Counted from the stretch's first letter, positions 19,915 to 34,180 are shown. The stretch is 34,387 nucleotides of DNA from a virus (IMGVR_UViG_3300045988_107065); one strand, 5' to 3'. The notes: generated by a model from the sequence alone, not told the origin. Program-made: numbers and translations.

Positions 19915-19991
19915 GTGGCATTAGCTCAGTTGGACAGAGCAACCGCCTTCTAAGCGGTTGGTCGCAGGTTCGAATCCTGCATGCCACGCCA
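19915..19991 (+). tRNA. tRNA-Arg (anticodon UCU)
   Basis: Cloverleaf folded by hand: acceptor GTGGCAT/ATGCCAC, D-arm GCTC/GAGC, anticodon stem ACCGC/GCGGT with loop CTTCTAA, T-arm GCAGG-TTCGAAT-CCTGC, discriminator G and encoded CCA; 77 nt. Confidence 0.9.
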
Positions 19992-25011: not shown

Positions 25012-25620
25012 TCATGCCGATCTATTTTTCATCAGTGATTCATAAAACTTTTGCCACTTATGCCGACCGAAATTAGCCTTCGAGTTACAGCTCGAACAAA
25101 GGCAAATAAGGTTCTCCTGACGACAGTCTTGCTTGTCGTAATTGATGTGATGAGTTGTTAGCCTTTTGTCTGTTCCATCACAACCTGGGTTCTGACAAGT
25201 AAAACCATCTCGCTCAATAACCCTCTTGCTCGTTTCTCGGAAATCCCACGGATACGGCAATCTCGATAATCCACCAGACCAGTTTGGATTTCCTTCCCCC
25301 TTCATCAGAGAAGAACGCATTATGTTGGAACACTGTTTCGAGCAGCATTTATGACGCTTCTCATGACTCAAGAAAACGGAGAACGAAGATCCGCATACGC
25401 AGCATATTTTTAATACTCGCTTTAGTTCCCGATTTACCGTCTTGCCTCGCTGTGAAATTCCTACACACTGAAGTGAGCAGAACCTTGAAGATGAGTTGGC
25501 TCGCTTAACCTGATATTGCCTGCCACATACGGAACAAACCTTTTCGATTTTCCCACCCTTCCAATTCGGGTTTTTATCACCGGATACAATCAATCCCGCA
25601 GCATTGGGCTTCTCGCTCAT
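25012..25620 (-). CDS. HNH endonuclease with two N-terminal zinc-ribbon repeats
   Basis: HNH-like core (TTHHINYDK...NLICLCSSCNSKANFGRH); duplicated NPNW(K/S)GG...C-x2-C...C-x3-C units. Confidence 0.75.
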   Translation of the reverse strand: MSEKPNAAGLIVSGDKNPNWKGGKIEKVCSVCGRQYQVKRANSSSRFCSLQCVGISQRGKTVNRELKRVLKICCVCGSSFSVFLSHEKRHKCCSKQCSNIMRSSLMKGEGNPNWSGGLSRLPYPWDFRETSKRVIERDGFTCQNPGCDGTDKRLTTHHINYDKQDCRQENLICLCSSCNSKANFGRHKWQKFYESLMKNRSA

Positions 25621-28436: not shown

Positions 28437-29021
28437 ATGAAAAGTATCCAGGACGTCCGCAGGCAAAATCTCAACGACTTGATCGACCGTGAATTCAATG
28501 GTGTTCAGACGCGGATGGCTGAAAAACTTGGAACTCAGGCAAATCTGGTAAACCGCTGGGCTCTTGGCAAGAAGGTTATCGGCGACCAGGTTGCGCGAAA
28601 AATTGAAGCTGCCGCCAATAAACCCCGTAACTGGCTTGATATCGATCGCTCGCTTTCTCAGGAAGGTTTTCAGCCTGTCGGACCAAGCGACATTGGTCAA
28701 CTGGCGGCTCACAACCTGGAACGCTGGATGAGCGAAAGCCGCGACCTTTCAACGCAGGGAAAACTTCACCGCGCATCCGGCGTCGCCCAGGTGACAATCA
28801 GCCGCCTGTTAAACAATGAGGTCAGCGTTTCCATTTCCACCCTGGAGAATGTTGCATCCGCATTCGGGCGTCACGGCTATGAATTACTGATTCACCCGCA
28901 CGACCCTGCGACTATCAACTATGACCGCTCGCGCTACGCTTTGTTACCCGAAACCGAGAAAGCAAAGATCGAAAGTTACATTGAATTTGTCATCAACCAG
29001 AACGAAAAAAACAAACAATAA
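28437..29021 (+). CDS. Repressor-like protein with two tandem XRE-type HTH domains and no peptidase domain
   Basis: Two HTH-like segments (QTRMAEKLGTQANLVNRW; ASGVAQVTISRLLNNE); no Ser/Lys S24 autocleavage motifs seen. Confidence 0.65.
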   Translation: MKSIQDVRRQNLNDLIDREFNGVQTRMAEKLGTQANLVNRWALGKKVIGDQVARKIEAAANKPRNWLDIDRSLSQEGFQPVGPSDIGQLAAHNLERWMSESRDLSTQGKLHRASGVAQVTISRLLNNEVSVSISTLENVASAFGRHGYELLIHPHDPATINYDRSRYALLPETEKAKIESYIEFVINQNEKNKQ

Positions 29022-29041: not shown

Positions 29042-29067
29042 AAGCCGCCTTCTGGCGGCTTTTTTAT
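29042..29067 (+). terminator. Rho-independent terminator after the repressor gene
   Basis: aagccgcc-ttct-ggcggctt followed by TTTT. Confidence 0.65.
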
Positions 29068-29078
29068 TGCCTGTTCGA

Positions 29079-29093
29079 TTACCTAACGGGTAA
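29079..29093. promoter_or_regulatory. TTACC-N5-GGTAA palindrome (site 9)
   Basis: gattaccTAACGggtaatt. Confidence 0.45.
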
Positions 29094-29140
29094 TTTTTTT
29101 AACTCATATCTATTGACATCAAACCATATACGCATAATTA

Positions 29141-29155
29141 TTACCTCAACGGTAA
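29141..29155. promoter_or_regulatory. TTACC-N5-GGTAA palindrome (site 10) immediately downstream of a TTGACA (29113-29118) promoter-like element
   Basis: attaccTCAACggtaac. Confidence 0.5.
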
Positions 29156-29174
29156 CAGACCGAGGTAACAAGTT

Positions 29175-29327
29175 ATGCAGTGGAAAATCATCAACGGTTG
29201 GTACTGCGTTACTGCATGCGGATTCATGAGCTGGAAGTTCCGCACCTTACAGGAAGGCATTAAATGGGCTTTCGTCAGCAAAGAAGCTCGCGATGTGGCC
29301 AACGATAACGAGATATGGGAGGGCTGA
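29175..29327 (+). CDS. Small hypothetical protein (50 aa), first ORF of the plus-strand early operon
   Basis: ATG with GAGGTAA RBS; hydrophobic/aromatic-rich; below the track cutoff. Confidence 0.4.
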   Translation: MQWKIINGWYCVTACGFMSWKFRTLQEGIKWAFVSKEARDVANDNEIWEG

Positions 29328-29329
29328 TA

Positions 29330-29629
29330 ATGAACGTTAATCAGCAGAAAAATCTTCAAAAAATCATGCTGGCATTCGACAAGGACTACCGTCTGTCAGA
29401 ACAGCTATATGACCGACAAGTTGAACTGATTGAGAGTATCCGGCTTCATCAACTGGCATCAACTTTCGACGTTGTAACAGTTAAAGGCGTTCGCCAGGAA
29501 GTACTGGAGGCCGCTAAAGACAGCCCTGAGTTCGAAGAACTAATGGATGCCTACCGGCGCGAGGCAATGGCAATTATCGCCCGCTGGGATCTGGCTGATC
29601 AGCTTGATGGGCAGAGGGACGCGGCATGA
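29330..29629 (+). CDS. Hypothetical protein (about 99 aa) upstream of the recombination genes
   Basis: ATG directly after the preceding stop (TGATAATG); track ORF starts at 29315. Confidence 0.45.
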   Translation: MNVNQQKNLQKIMLAFDKDYRLSEQLYDRQVELIESIRLHQLASTFDVVTVKGVRQEVLEAAKDSPEFEELMDAYRREAMAIIARWDLADQLDGQRDAA

Positions 29630-30447
29630 AACCGGGAATTTATTTCGACATCAGCAACGAAGACTACCACGCCGGTGACGGCGTGAGTAAGTCGCAACTG
29701 GACATGGTTGCCAAGAATCCGGCGCTTCTTAAATGGGTTCAGGCAGCACCAGAAGACGAAGAGAAAAAGTCTGCACTGGATATGGGAACCGCATTGCACT
29801 GTCTGCTTCTGGAGCCTGGAGAGTTCGACAAACGCTTCATTGTTTCACCGAAATTCGATCGTCGGACGAAACAAGGTAAAGCTGACGAAGAGGAATTTCT
29901 TCGTGATGTGGCGGATATGGGGATTACGGTACTTGATGCCGAGCAGTGGCGGAAACTGGAGCTGATGCGTGATAGCGCAATGGCTCACCCGGCGGCACGC
30001 TGGATGCTGGAAGCACCTGGTTACTGCGAAGCATCAATGTACTGGAACGATGAAGAGACGGGGGAGTTGTGCCGAATTCGTCCAGACAAATGGCTGAACG
30101 AGCACAACGTGATCGTCGACGTGAAAAAGGTTGCAGATATGGACCGTTTTGCACGCCACATCGAGGAATTCCGCTACCACGTGCAGGACGCAATGTACCG
30201 CGAAGGCGCAATGAGGGTTACTGGTCAGCCGCATGGTTTTTTCTTTCTTGCCGTGAGCGAAAGCATTGATTGTGGTCGGTATCCGGTACGCGTGTTCGAG
30301 CTGGATGCGCAGGATGTCGATGCCGGGCACGCTCTGTTCCGCCGGGATCTGAATACCTATCACGAATGCCGCATCAATGATGAATGGGGCGGTGTGGAAA
30401 TCATTAAACGCCCTGAGTGGGCACGCAAACAGGATATGTACATATGA
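29626..30447 (+). CDS. PD-(D/E)XK recombination exonuclease (RecE C-terminal/DUF3799-like)
   Basis: N-terminal FDISNEDYHAGDGVSKSQL motif, D...DVKK nuclease core; ATGA overlap with RecT-like gene downstream. Confidence 0.7.
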   Translation: MKPGIYFDISNEDYHAGDGVSKSQLDMVAKNPALLKWVQAAPEDEEKKSALDMGTALHCLLLEPGEFDKRFIVSPKFDRRTKQGKADEEEFLRDVADMGITVLDAEQWRKLELMRDSAMAHPAARWMLEAPGYCEASMYWNDEETGELCRIRPDKWLNEHNVIVDVKKVADMDRFARHIEEFRYHVQDAMYREGAMRVTGQPHGFFFLAVSESIDCGRYPVRVFELDAQDVDAGHALFRRDLNTYHECRINDEWGGVEIIKRPEWARKQDMYI

Positions 30448-31385
30448 GCAACGACATCGCAAACATCAACGCACCAGTAGACACAGCAATCGCTGGAACT
30501 GCTGCAACTATTTTCAGCCCAGACGGCTTGAACCAACTGATGAAATTCGCCGAGGTAATGGCGCAAAGCCGCGTAACGGTACCGGCGCACCTCGCCGGGA
30601 AACCAGCTGATTGCATGGCCGTGGCAATGCAGGCTGCGCAGTGGGGAATGAACCCGTTTGCCGTGGCTCAGAAAACCCATGTTGTGAACGGCACGCTAGG
30701 TTATGAAGCCCAATTAGTAAACGCAGTTATCTCAACGATGTCGCCAACAAAAGATCGCATCAACTACGAGTGGTTCGGGCCGTGGGAACGCGTGATCGGT
30801 AAGTTTGTTGAGAAAACATCCAAAAACGGCAATCCATATATCGCACCAGGCTGGACTCTAAAAGACGAAGAAGGCTGCGGTGTTCGCGTATGGGCAACCA
30901 TGAAGGGCGAGGATCAACCTCGAGTGCTTGAGTTAATGCTGTCTCAAGCACAGGTAAGAAACTCCACACTTTGGGCCAGTGATCCGAAACAACAACTCGC
31001 ATACCTTGCGACAAAACGCTGGTCTCGCCTGCACTGTCCTGACGTAATCATGGGCGTCTACACCCCAGACGAATTACAGGAAACGGCACCGCGCGTTGAG
31101 CGAGACATTACTCCGCAAACGACCACTGCTGCGGGAATGAACAGTCTGATCAACGCTAAACCAGCGAAAAAGCCTGATGAGCAAACGCGTAAATCGGACA
31201 GCCGTGATCCAGAAGAAATGCTGATGGCCTTTACCAGCGCAGCGATGAATTACAGCACTGTCTCCGAACTGGATAAGGCTTACAAATACATTGCACAAAA
31301 ACTTTCAGATGATGACGAACTGCTGGCAAAAGCCACCGACGTTTACAGCGTTCGTCGGGAAGAATTAAACGAAACATCTATGTAA
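30444..31385 (+). CDS. recT: RecT-family single-strand annealing protein
   Basis: Sequence characteristic of the RecT family; coupled to the exonuclease gene (start ATG at 30444 overlapping the upstream TGA). Confidence 0.8.
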   Translation: MSNDIANINAPVDTAIAGTAATIFSPDGLNQLMKFAEVMAQSRVTVPAHLAGKPADCMAVAMQAAQWGMNPFAVAQKTHVVNGTLGYEAQLVNAVISTMSPTKDRINYEWFGPWERVIGKFVEKTSKNGNPYIAPGWTLKDEEGCGVRVWATMKGEDQPRVLELMLSQAQVRNSTLWASDPKQQLAYLATKRWSRLHCPDVIMGVYTPDELQETAPRVERDITPQTTTAAGMNSLINAKPAKKPDEQTRKSDSRDPEEMLMAFTSAAMNYSTVSELDKAYKYIAQKLSDDDELLAKATDVYSVRREELNETSM

Positions 31386-31434
31386 CCACCACCGCGGCGC
31401 CACGCGCGCCGCACTGCAACCAAGAGAGGTATTT

Positions 31435-31683
31435 ATGAAAGGTGCATTAGGTAAGAAGGAACTCCTGGCGGTGGTTCCACTGTCATGGAGCACTATCGAC
31501 CGTATGGAGCGCGCAGGGGAATTTCCTAAACGCTGGTATATCACCGATAAACGCTGCGCATGGAACCGTGATGAAGTTGAGCGTTGGCTTGATGAACGTC
31601 AGGCAGCAAGCCCGGCAGAGTTCCAGGGTAAAAAACCTCCTGTTCAGCAACGTGTATATCGTCCCGTGAGCAACGCGGCATGA
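31435..31683 (+). CDS. AlpA-family DNA-binding protein (excisionase/transcriptional regulator type)
   Basis: Motif LSWSTIDRMERAGEFPKRWYITDKRCAWNRDEVERWL typical of the AlpA/Vis/TorI family. Confidence 0.75.
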   Translation: MKGALGKKELLAVVPLSWSTIDRMERAGEFPKRWYITDKRCAWNRDEVERWLDERQAASPAEFQGKKPPVQQRVYRPVSNAA

Positions 31684-31792
31684 GTGTGCTGCTAAGGCAC
31701 TGGAGCAAATGGTCAGGATGGTACTTATTCCTGGCCTCTGTTTCAGCATGGCTTTATCTGCTGGCATTAATTTTCAGAGAGGGTTGGATTAA

Positions 31793-32092
31793 GTGAGAAA
31801 GTTAAGCCGACTTGAAAAATATCACATGAACAAGGTTTCAATGCGCAGTCCGTCAAAGATTGTCGCCGTTACTCCTGCGGCGATAGAGATCGAAAAACGC
31901 GCGATTGAAAGAGAGAAAAAAGGGCAGTTCCGCATTGCCGCTCACCTTTGGCTTCAGTGTATGGATGTTGCTTCTGGTGATGTTGAGCGTGCAAGGATCG
32001 CGGTTCGCAGGGACCAATGTATCACAAAAGGTAACGGCCTTCGCCGTGGCGACTATAGCGGCATAGGATGTTGTGGGGTGGTTTATGACTAA
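31793..32092 (+). CDS. Hypothetical protein (start uncertain: GTG 31793, ATG 31826 or ATG 31844)
   Basis: ORF between the AlpA-like and methyltransferase genes. Confidence 0.4.
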   Translation: MRKLSRLEKYHMNKVSMRSPSKIVAVTPAAIEIEKRAIEREKKGQFRIAAHLWLQCMDVASGDVERARIAVRRDQCITKGNGLRRGDYSGIGCCGVVYD

Positions 32093-32735
32093 GAAATACA
32101 CACTAATCTATGCAGATCCACCCTGGGTATACCGGGACAAAGCCGCAGATGGTAATCGCGGTGCCGGTTTTAAATATCCGGTTATGAGTGTGCTGGATAT
32201 CTGCCGCCTTCCTGTGTGGGATTTGGCCGATGAAAACTGTCTGTTGGCCATGTGGTGGGTGCCAACACAACCACTCGAAGCACTAAAAGTTGTTGAGGCC
32301 TGGGGATTCCGTCTGATGACCATGAAGGGATTCACGTGGATAAAATGTGGTAGTCGACAACCAGATAAACTGGTTATGGGTATGGGTCACATGACTCGCG
32401 CCAATAGTGAAGATTGCCTGTTTGCAGTAAAGGGAAAACTACCTACGCGCATTAATGCAGGGATCGTTCAGTCATTTACCGCACCGCGGCTTGAGCATTC
32501 AAGAAAACCAGATATCGTTCGTGAAAAACTTGTGCAATTGTTAGGCGATGTTTCTCGCATTGAACTGTTCGCCCGCCAGTCGTCTCATGGTTTCGATGTT
32601 TGGGGTAATCAGTGCGAAGACCCGGCAGTGCAACTACACCCTGGATACGCGTTGGATATTGCCAGATTAACAAATGCATTCAGCAATGCTCCGCTGTCAC
32701 CAACAGACAACCAGGGGCGGGAGCGTGCAGCATGA
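32085..32735 (+). CDS. MT-A70 family N6-adenine DNA methyltransferase (orphan, no cognate endonuclease in window)
   Basis: Catalytic DPPW motif (LIYADPPWVY); ATG at 32085. Confidence 0.85.
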   Translation: MTKKYTLIYADPPWVYRDKAADGNRGAGFKYPVMSVLDICRLPVWDLADENCLLAMWWVPTQPLEALKVVEAWGFRLMTMKGFTWIKCGSRQPDKLVMGMGHMTRANSEDCLFAVKGKLPTRINAGIVQSFTAPRLEHSRKPDIVREKLVQLLGDVSRIELFARQSSHGFDVWGNQCEDPAVQLHPGYALDIARLTNAFSNAPLSPTDNQGRERAA

Positions 32736-32926
32736 ACAGGGCATCACCATCAGATTTAAGGAAATGCCTTGAAACTGCAAACATGCTTGCACACAGCGGG
32801 ATCAGGTTTGTTCCAATTCCCGCTGTCACTGATGCTGAATTTGCAACACTGTCAGCAATATTCACAGATAAAATTGAATCACTGGCAGCAGAAGCCGAGA
32901 TGGAAGAAAATCAGCAGAATAATTAA
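32732..32926 (+). CDS. Small hypothetical protein (64 aa)
   Basis: ATG overlapping the methyltransferase stop (ATGA) with GGGAG upstream. Confidence 0.45.
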   Translation: MNRASPSDLRKCLETANMLAHSGIRFVPIPAVTDAEFATLSAIFTDKIESLAAEAEMEENQQNN

Positions 32927-32929
32927 ACG

Positions 32930-34180
32930 TTATTCCCCCGCCATCCATTTCTCAAACTTCGACGGGGAGAACGGAATCAGATCCGTATGCTCCCCGTCAA
33001 TCCAGGAATCAATCATATCGGCCCACTGCTGCAACATGTAGGCGCGCTGTCTGGCGTATTCCGCTTTGTTATATACGGCGCGCACACCTTTCTGCTCATG
33101 TGCCAGAGCCTTTTCAATCCAGTCTGAAGGATAACCAGCCTCATGCAATAACGTACTGGCTGTACGGCGCATATCGTGTACGGTGAAATCCTGAATATGC
33201 TCACCATCTTCATTTATTATTTTCACCGTTCTGTCGATCAGAGAGTTCAGCGCGGCATTAGATAATGGCTTCCGGAAATTGTAACGACCAGGAACCAGAT
33301 ATTCACTTCCACCAGCGCACATCTGCAACCCGACCAATATATCCTGAGCCTGTTTAGGCAGGTAAATAACATGCGCCCGGCTTCCCTTCATGCGGTCTGA
33401 AGGAATTGTCCATGTCCATTTTTTAAAATCTATTTCATCCCACGTTGCATTGGTGAATTCGCCCTTACGAACCATAGTGATAAGCACCAGTTTTAAAGCC
33501 ATTTTCATAGTGCCCATAGCACCAATGGCATCCAACGTGCGGAAGAACAGGCCAATTTCTTCTGGTGTCAGTGTTCGCTCTCGTGGTTTAAATATGGCGA
33601 TAGACGAAGGCTTAATGTCAGCCGCAGGATTAAACAAACCATGACCACGGTCATTGGCGTGACGGTATACGCTGCTGATGATCTCCCTGGCCTGCACTGC
33701 TGTTGCCCGGCCACCGCGTTCGACAATCCGGTCACACAAATCACGAACCATCGATGTGGTAATTTCAGCCATCATTTTGTTGCCAAGAACCGGAAGTATG
33801 TCACGGTCGATCACTGCCTGCTTCATTGCGCGGGTACTTTCAGCCAGGATGACGTGTTTCATATAACTGTCGGTATGTACCGCAAACGTTTCGGCACCAC
33901 GAATCTTTTTGATACCGTCACGTTTAGCCGCAGCCGGTGACTGGCCTGCTTTAAGCAGCTTCTTTGCAGCAATCAGTTCTTCCCGCGCTTCTGCCAGGCT
34001 GATACCGTCACGCCCATACTGCCCGATTACCAGTGTTTCGCGGCGACCGTTGATACGGTAGTCATAACGAAATGAGACCGTGCCTGACGTAAGCACAGCT
34101 ACATACAGCCCGTCACGATCGGAGACCTTGTACAGTTTGTCCTGCGGCTTGAGGTTTTTTAATTTTGTATCGGTAAGCAC
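32930..34180 (-). CDS. int: Tyrosine integrase, P4-type (N-terminal arm-binding domain plus catalytic domain)
   Basis: N-terminal MLTDTKLKNLKP...GLYVAV...FRYDYR arm-binding motif; C-terminal HDMRRT...VRAVYNKAEY with catalytic Tyr. Confidence 0.9.
   Translation of the reverse strand: MLTDTKLKNLKPQDKLYKVSDRDGLYVAVLTSGTVSFRYDYRINGRRETLVIGQYGRDGISLAEAREELIAAKKLLKAGQSPAAAKRDGIKKIRGAETFAVHTDSYMKHVILAESTRAMKQAVIDRDILPVLGNKMMAEITTSMVRDLCDRIVERGGRATAVQAREIISSVYRHANDRGHGLFNPAADIKPSSIAIFKPRERTLTPEEIGLFFRTLDAIGAMGTMKMALKLVLITMVRKGEFTNATWDEIDFKKWTWTIPSDRMKGSRAHVIYLPKQAQDILVGLQMCAGGSEYLVPGRYNFRKPLSNAALNSLIDRTVKIINEDGEHIQDFTVHDMRRTASTLLHEAGYPSDWIEKALAHEQKGVRAVYNKAEYARQRAYMLQQWADMIDSWIDGEHTDLIPFSPSKFEKWMAGE

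Follow-up and report, generated by a model that had tools for sequence, protein, structure and literature searches.

An orphan MT-A70 methyltransferase in the RecE/RecT early operon of a phiV10-type prophage: a candidate mimic of host Dam

What does an adenine methyltransferase do in the early operon of a prophage when no restriction enzyme accompanies it? The question is raised by IMGVR_UViG_3300045988_107065, a viral stretch of 34,387 nucleotides (hereafter the window), in which an original prediction had recognized an exonuclease/RecT module with an orphan MT-A70 adenine methyltransferase after it; our analysis bears this arrangement out. The explanation that best accommodates the evidence as a whole, and which we hold to be moderately likely, is that the methyltransferase acts as a mimic of Dam and would methylate GATC in phage DNA. 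The region itself is an early-left operon, the functional counterpart of the lambda exo-xis region.

The methyltransferase matches PF05063 over the entire profile (positions 1–172 of 172; E 3.4e-22, 79.6 bits against a cut-off of 23.9). Motif IV lies within YADPPWVY (residues 9–16), whose DPPW is invariant across 23 homologues, and a C-terminal motif, IELFAR...WGNQ, aligns to MTA1. By sequence, the solved structures nearest to it are those of Tetrahymena MTA1, a DNA N6-methyladenine (m6A) enzyme, and METTL3; both are also the top Foldseek matches (METTL3 at E 8e-11, TM 0.63–0.67) of an AlphaFold2 model that is itself of moderate confidence only (pLDDT 68.7, pTM 0.69). The gene is intact, and conserved at 98–100% over its full length in 80 of 80 near relatives (loci L004–L083, in which the methyltransferase is 97–100% identical). 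The product is thus predicted to be an intact N6-adenine enzyme dependent on S-adenosylmethionine (SAM).

Its orphan status was assessed by Pfam and PADLOC scans of the other, non-structural open reading frames (ORFs) of the window, several of which have no family match of any kind; no restriction enzyme was found among them, and within these scans the claim that the methyltransferase has no partner endonuclease is upheld. The neighboring genes encode a PerC-family protein, an Orf63-like protein and an integrase, none of them the adjacent endonuclease of a Type II restriction–modification system, and PADLOC labels the methyltransferase 'MTase_II' only. The sole other nuclease-like match in the window is a 202-residue ORF (25012–25620, minus strand) with an HNH-endonuclease-like C-terminus (PADLOC ZorE-like, E 3.5e-10; no Pfam match), which lies ~6.5 kb away on the opposite strand in the early-right region.

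The target motif had been given as unknown, yet characterized relatives of the enzyme point to GATC. Over 187 residues it is 83% identical to M.EcoPA8orf6770P of the Shiga toxin (Stx) 2a phage PA8, to which M.EcoGV is described as 'highly similar'; M.EcoGV is reported to methylate GATC in vivo when overproduced, and REBASE lists proteins of this kind as GATC enzymes (PMC10810198). A methylome paper likewise lists M.EcoGV as a GATC 'Dam homolog' (PMC6602927). At greater distance, the window enzyme is 40% identical to PhiBZS1_p32 of Serratia phage vB_SspM_BZS1 (hereafter BZS1 p32), which, cloned alone in a dam- host, renders DNA MboI-resistant and DpnI-sensitive (PMC7556043). BZS1 p32 and M.EfaBMDam (from Tn1549) are GATC-specific MT-A70 enzymes that share family and motifs with the window enzyme, and BZS1 p32 is, moreover, similarly placed: an orphan beside integrase and excisionase genes, with a small PerC/ANR-like gene directly upstream. 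It is unlike the window enzyme in having a 23-residue insertion after its TWVK motif and another gene downstream. By its close relation to these characterized members, the window methyltransferase would fall within the prokaryotic Dam-like (GATC) MT-A70 subgroup.

A chimeric MT-A70 protein from Enterobacter hormaechei (P0191) combines a BZS1-type N-terminal half, including the 23-residue insertion, with a C-terminal half and tail of the window type. This protein indicates intragenic recombination between the two MT-A70 clades and supports their interchangeability.

A second line of evidence comes from what occupies the position of the methyltransferase in related prophages. We assembled 52 syntenic loci (L252–L303), anchored on PerC homologues rather than on the methyltransferase, with the order exo–RecT–AlpA–PerC–...–integrase and in several cases located beside guaA. 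The slot between PerC and integrase holds an MT-A70 gene in 25 of the 52, a 183-residue Dam-family enzyme (PF05869; 44% identical to T1 Dam) in 17 and a C5-methylase+Dam fusion of about 610–660 residues in six; a methyltransferase is lacking from only a few loci, which are truncated contigs, such that each locus with room keeps some DNA methyltransferase. The 183-residue enzyme is not homologous to MT-A70. PF05869 Dam proteins such as those of T1 and HP1 share the slot, and the presumed GATC role, with the window enzyme, but carry an NPPY motif and belong to a different fold family; the idea that T1 and HP1 Dam might themselves be MT-A70 members was rejected by alignment (15–19% identity). The position is thus fixed while its occupant changes by non-orthologous replacement, bona fide DNA methyltransferases taking the place of MT-A70; this argues that the trait under selection at the slot is Dam-type DNA methylation. 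The interchange of MT-A70, T1-type Dam and C5+Dam enzymes supplies comparative evidence on the dispute over whether the MT-A70 enzymes of Stx phages act on DNA or on ribosomal RNA (rRNA).

Several observations weigh against a GATC-specific Dam mimic. Purified M.EcoPA8orf6770P alone was near background in vitro on DNA, dam- DNA included, as it was on RNA (PMC10810198). The region from TW(I/H)K to GMG differs from that of both BZS1 p32, where the insertion lies, and the epsilon15-type enzymes, so the specificity could differ as well. In a Dam+ host, a further GATC enzyme would seem redundant. The methyltransferase gene is often disrupted or truncated in relatives, and is thus dispensable. Finally, the 133 GATC sites of the window amount to 1.0x the base-composition expectation (134; a Markov model gives 178), a frequency that offers no clue to specificity, other palindromes behaving similarly.

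Variation of the same TW(I/H)K-to-GMG loop, which extends to close relatives of the methyltransferase, would be compatible with a DNA adenine methyltransferase of other or relaxed specificity serving broad anti-restriction, and phage orphan enzymes of relaxed specificity are known (the OS31 enzyme, PMC7556043; M.EcoGII, PMC7544214). We regard a non-GATC specificity as unlikely, given that the tested relatives on either side of the window enzyme in sequence space (at about 83% and 40% identity) are GATC enzymes, that REBASE assigns similar proteins to GATC, and that the unrelated enzymes taking its place in the slot are of the Dam (GATC) family.

The truncated, split or insertion sequence-disrupted copies of the gene in relatives (this analysis; PMC10810198), together with the other methyltransferase families in the slot of syntenic prophages, could also be read as signs of a dispensable passenger in functional decay, without a role in the prophage. 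This is very unlikely in view of the conservation across all 80 near relatives noted above, the presence of every catalytic motif, and the retention of some DNA methyltransferase in each syntenic locus with room for one.

A further alternative holds that the methyltransferase is primarily a 16S rRNA adenine enzyme that tunes translation and the frequency of prophage induction. M.EcoPA8orf6770P, its 83% identical relative, is reported as an rRNA enzyme: it raises spontaneous induction and virulence, and an active-site mutant loses both phenotypes (Gong et al., PMC10810198). Co-purification with PNB-2, the product of the gene upstream, gave an enzyme that used SAM >13-fold better on RNA than on DNA, with 16S rRNA as the preferred substrate (PMC10810198), a result that also counts against a Dam mimic; the RNA enzyme METTL3 is, in addition, among the closest solved folds retrieved with the model. 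This RNA preference, however, required PNB-2, of which no homologue was detected in the window (best tblastn E 0.52), and the ORF upstream of the window methyltransferase is unrelated to PNB-2 (hhalign probability 0.3%). The C-terminal tail proposed for the PNB-2 holoenzyme (the last 27 residues) diverges in the window enzyme after residue 187. Both features of the holoenzyme, an adjacent PNB-2 gene and this tail, are thus absent here. The holoenzyme was compared using DNA from a dam+ strain, because of which activity on GATC falls outside that comparison, and no modified rRNA base was mapped for M.EcoPA8orf6770P (PMC10810198). The slot in syntenic prophages is filled by bona fide DNA methyltransferase families. 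Taking both sides together, we consider a primary rRNA function improbable for the window enzyme.

PA8 and the window are otherwise alike in several respects. M.EcoPA8orf6770P and its relative M.EcoGV (E. coli O104:H4) share the catalytic core (83% identity for M.EcoPA8orf6770P) and the same DPPW with the window enzyme; PA8 carries a coupled Orf63/DUF1382 gene downstream (49% identical to that of the window), and in both the gene pair lies in an integrase-proximal early region. They differ in that PA8 has PNB-2 where the window has a PerC-family gene, in the 20–30 C-terminal residues of the methyltransferase, which are unrelated, and in phage type (PA8 is an Stx lambdoid phage, the window a Uetakevirus). 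A hidden relationship between PNB-2 and PerC was sought and rejected (hhalign probabilities 0.3–0.4%).

The Dam mimic has also to be reconciled with the time at which it would be made. The repressor gene (28437–29021) is parted from the left operon by an intrinsic terminator, beyond which a strong sigma-70-like promoter is flanked by two operators, ATTACCTAACGGGTAAT upstream of the -35 hexamer and ATTACCTCAACGGTAAC overlapping the -10 hexamer and transcription start (Table 1). The underlying palindrome, ATTACC-N5-GGTAAT, recurs at 13 window sites (allowing up to two mismatches) against 1.1 expected; those sites placed against genes (27981, 28366, 29078, 29140 and 34222) are all intergenic, some of the sites are paired, and one repressor seems to control many dispersed promoters of the prophage. 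The original prediction had entertained the palindrome as a possible methylation target. In epsilon15 the exact motif, upstream of the homologous operon, carries the annotation of a repressor binding site, and the recurring palindrome is on this basis a repressor operator unrelated to the methyltransferase; being an operator, it is not the methylation target.

The assignment of the genes to an early operon is confirmed, with repressor control apparent from the operator and promoter anatomy. Within the operon, the coding strand yielded no promoter-like site. Since the methyltransferase gene lies ~3 kb downstream of the operator-flanked promoter and no internal promoter was found, it is probably silent in lysogens and made only after derepression. 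This affects how the proposal can be examined: the absence of a new methylated motif in lysogens had been put forward as a refutation, but a methylome comparison of lysogen and non-lysogen would be uninformative, because the gene is probably off in the lysogen and GATC is already methylated by Dam in a dam+ host. A role in anti-restriction or epigenetic DNA methylation, as first suggested, is still the best supported.

We infer the following course of events. In the lysogen, repressor bound at the two operators flanking the promoter would keep the operon off, as the anatomy and the epsilon15 annotation suggest. Upon infection or induction, a single transcript would yield a minimal RecE-type exonuclease and RecT for phage recombination, an AlpA-type excisionase or regulator, a tiny membrane protein, a PerC-family regulator, the orphan methyltransferase and an Orf63-like developmental protein. 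Host Dam is limiting during lytic replication, and at this stage the methyltransferase may methylate the GATC sites of phage DNA, and those of host DNA incidentally. Progeny, with their packaged DNA fully methylated, would then be safe from enzymes that attack GATC, by cutting or nicking, where it is unmethylated or hemimethylated, and MutH may be kept from nicking the hemimethylated products of recombination and replication.

The gene directly upstream of the methyltransferase, described initially as an unknown ORF, is present as called and can be given a family. It encodes a PerC-family protein (PF06069, 30.1 bits against a cut-off of 22.6, over profile positions 5–50 of 90 only; phrog_868, E 5.7e-62) that is annotated as PerC in phiV10 and RefSeq and has a weak, sub-threshold match to the ANR family as well; a function as transcriptional activator (for instance of ler) may be expected from its family. 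Its end overlaps the methyltransferase start by 8 nucleotides (ATGACTAA), which invites the proposal that it is a dedicated partner or controller of the enzyme, either a targeting subunit in the manner of PNB-2 or a regulator akin to C-proteins. PerC-like domains do immediately precede MT-A70 genes, in three forms that have diverged and differ in context: the overlapping PerC of the window and phiV10; BZS1 p33, of the 'ANR family' (60–81-residue type), together with three IMG/VR loci; and fusions of a winged helix–turn–helix (wHTH) domain with PerC (hhalign 93.5%, E 2e-7), which precede MT-A70 in 79 of 80 loci. Rare ORFs in which PerC and the methyltransferase are fused (P0125 and P0123, two or three member sequences each) may be added, although these are possibly assembly artefacts.

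Against such a partnership, the upstream position is hypervariable, at least 25 unrelated families preceding the same methyltransferase across 78 loci of the BZS1-type clade; the upstream gene in these loci nearly always overlaps, and encodes PNB-2 homologues in seven, PerC-like proteins in ten, and elsewhere wHTH proteins or enzymes. PerC is separated from the methyltransferase by other small genes in epsilon15, Tyrion and a Klebsiella phage, it is retained where a non-homologous methyltransferase replaces MT-A70, and BZS1 p32 is GATC-specific without p33 (PMC7556043). Coupling by overlap is general in the window operon and, as almost every operon junction is an ATGA-type overlap, is no sign of a specific partnership. 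Literature searches for a link between PerC and methyltransferases found none. The chance that PerC is a dedicated partner is slim, and we offer the connection as a low-probability lead, not as a finding; the recurrence of a PerC-like neighbor of MT-A70 in unrelated phage contexts is of interest as a lead on the role of prophage PerC homologues.

Two further candidates for a linkage were discarded. The wHTH–PerC fusion family was rejected as independent evidence because all of its loci share one synteny, so that adjacency in this family reflects ancestry. Covariation of the C-terminal tail of the methyltransferase with the family of the upstream gene was also sought and none was seen, the same tail occurring with many families; PNB-2-associated tails differ between clades. 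As to the fused ORFs, one arose by loss of one T in the TTT before ATG, and the other by an internal deletion, through which the N-terminal half of PerC now runs into the upstream extension of the methyltransferase frame.

Small wHTH proteins are recurrent upstream neighbors of MT-A70 genes, as is PNB-2 in Stx phages; in Enterobacter phage Tyrion, gp30 (L085, 3284–3511), a 75-residue winged-helix protein (HTH_24/MarR-like) and not a PerC, overlaps the methyltransferase start. A long shot would be that phage MT-A70 enzymes serve as catalytic cores, and that an exchangeable small nucleic-acid-binding protein encoded just upstream (PNB-2, wHTH or PerC/ANR-like) determines their substrate, with PerC as adaptor or controller here, with the PerC/Pch 'virulence activators' descended from methyltransferase accessory subunits, and with action on both RNA and DNA possible.

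The coordinates of the operon and its control elements are collected in Table 1. The exonuclease, RecT, AlpA-like, MT-A70 and 64-residue genes all lie where they had been called, with strong homology, and the identity of the module as such is near certain.

Table 1. Genes and control elements of the early-left operon and its surroundings (window positions)
Feature	Position	Strand	Evidence or context
Intrinsic terminator, 8-bp stem, 6 GC pairs, T run	29042..29061	+	After repressor gene; equivalent annotated in phiV10
Operator ATTACCTAACGGGTAAT	29078..29094	.	Upstream of -35 hexamer; same motif as epsilon15 annotated repressor binding site
Sigma-70-like promoter of left operon, TTGACA-17-AATTAT, 10/12 matches	29113..29141	+	Predicted from sequence
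Second operator ATTACCTCAACGGTAAC	29140..29156	.	Overlaps -10 hexamer and transcription start
ORF, 50 aa, function unknown	29175..29327	+	phiV10p39 / epsilon15 gp37 homologue
ORF, 99 aa, function unknown (phrog_856)	29330..29629	+	ATGA-coupled to exonuclease
RecE-type PD-(D/E)XK 5'-3' exonuclease, nuclease domain only, 273 aa	29626..30447	+	Profile and structure matches
RecT single-strand annealing protein	30444..31385	+	PF03837 E 2.2e-44; ATGA-coupled to exonuclease
AlpA/Vis-family small DNA-binding protein	31435..31683	+	PF05930 E 3.1e-5; phrog_66 E 2e-16; 8C3T
Membrane ORF (predicted), 38 aa	31680..31796	+	ATGA-coupled to AlpA; phiV10p35 / epsilon15 gp32 counterpart
PerC-family small protein	31826..32092 (start uncertain: 31793, 31826 or 31841)	+	PF06069, phrog_868
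Orphan MT-A70 (beta-class) N6-adenine methyltransferase (predicted), 216 aa	32085..32735	+	PF05063; DPPW residues 11-14
Lambda Orf63 homologue (DUF1382), 64 aa	32732..32926	+	ATGA-coupled to methyltransferase
P4-type tyrosine integrase	32930..34180	-	Convergent with operon; prophage end adjoins guaA; profile matches and RefSeq
Palindrome sites	871, 1251, 2303, 19577, 22704, 22722, 25973, 26035, 27981, 28366, 29078, 29140, 34222		

The exonuclease matches the Pfam DUF3799/PDDEXK family (E 9.5e-23) and the solved RecE nuclease domain (3H4R, E 9.4e-78), and aligns to the exodeoxyribonuclease VIII profile at positions 606–873 of 877 (E 1e-92), consistent with a minimal RecE. Its stop codon is formed by the last two bases of the RecT ATG and the following A (ATGA, 30444–30447), and the proposed overlap of the two genes can thus be read directly in the sequence. 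The two components of a RecET-type recombinase, a RecE-type nuclease domain and an adjacent RecT-family protein in the same operon, are both present. As in the RecET system of the Rac prophage, a nuclease matching the RecE catalytic domain is followed by a RecT-family protein; unlike Rac RecE, the window protein comprises only the C-terminal nuclease domain (273 residues against the 877-position profile). The window RecT has no close solved structural relative, and NCBIfam holds no model for the methyltransferase, RecT, AlpA or Orf63-like proteins.

The AlpA-like protein matches phrog_66 as an 'excisionase and transcriptional regulator' and the AlpA-family structure 8C3T (E 1.8e-11); since a P4-type integrase lies downstream, it is probably the excisionase for that integrase. 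The 38-residue membrane ORF that follows was absent from the earlier gene list and is kept in all 80 near relatives, as well as in epsilon15 and Tyrion. Beyond the methyltransferase, the 64-residue ORF matches DUF1382/PF07131 (E 2.3e-29) and, over residues 2–62, the structure of lambda Orf63 (8DSB, E 1.1e-12), a pro-lytic protein of the exo-xis region (PMC10869804).

The counterpart in lambda (orf60a, orf63, orf61, orf73 and ea22) occupies the same place, from the recombination genes to int/xis, shares the Orf63 homologue (PMC10869804), and is likewise read from an early, repressor-controlled leftward promoter. The two regions differ in the PerC, MT-A70 and AlpA genes and in the integrase, which is convergent with the operon in the window and co-transcribed in lambda.

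The same gene order is found in phiV10 (NC_007804, p39–p32; 98.3% DNA identity) and epsilon15 (gp37–gp28), whose annotated products match those of the window: RecE/RecT, AlpA, a membrane protein, a PerC-type activator, a DNA methyltransferase, DUF1382 and a P4-type integrase; the operator motif is shared too. Epsilon15 departs from the window in its exonuclease, which is of the YqaJ type, in additional small genes that separate PerC from the methyltransferase, and in a methyltransferase with a shorter tail; it also lacks an Orf63 homologue. PhiV10, for its part, is annotated with RecE and RecT as one fused gene where the window has two coupled genes. This phiV10 'fusion' is due to one extra A (A4 rather than A3; window 30424–30430), 20 nucleotides before the exonuclease stop. 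Among 34 loci with an exonuclease/RecT junction, A4 occurs only in two copies of the phiV10 record and is probably a sequencing error or private mutation.

The operon is mosaic among the near relatives. RecE-like and RecT genes are both without homologue in 17 of the 80 loci, with the RecT match alone missing in three more, and in about 21 the Orf63/DUF1382 gene is missing or has given way to ~470 bp of different sequence; the breakpoints lie tight around a conserved AlpA–PerC–methyltransferase core.

By nucleotide comparison, the 5 kb around the operon are 98.3–99.9% identical to Escherichia phages YDC107_2, EC.W1-9 and phiV10, in which the same gene roles are annotated, and 99.9% identical to the chromosome of E. 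coli YDC107 and others. Among 5426 complete E. coli genomes, 569 carry this stretch, 458 of them at a coverage of 80% or more; in a RefSeq chromosome, guaA and guaB follow the integrase. The window is thus a prophage of the phiV10/epsilon15 type, a temperate podovirus, with its integrase end adjoining guaA; phiV10 is a Uetakevirus of the epsilon15 group. Public phage records already contain these genes, in this order and with these annotations, and the module is real but ordinary: a common, annotated part of phiV10/epsilon15-type prophages, found in about one-tenth of complete E. coli genomes.

Elsewhere, the window has the expected genes for replication, packaging, head and tail, together with a tRNA-Arg (anticodon TCT, 19915–19991) that sits, as it does in the YDC107 prophage, between the portal and terminase regions. 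Two 41-kb E. coli 'plasmids' (NZ_CP079771.1 and NZ_CP079768.1) carry the PerC–methyltransferase–Orf63 segment at 98.1% identity, and their size suggests that they are circularized copies of the phage and not true plasmids.

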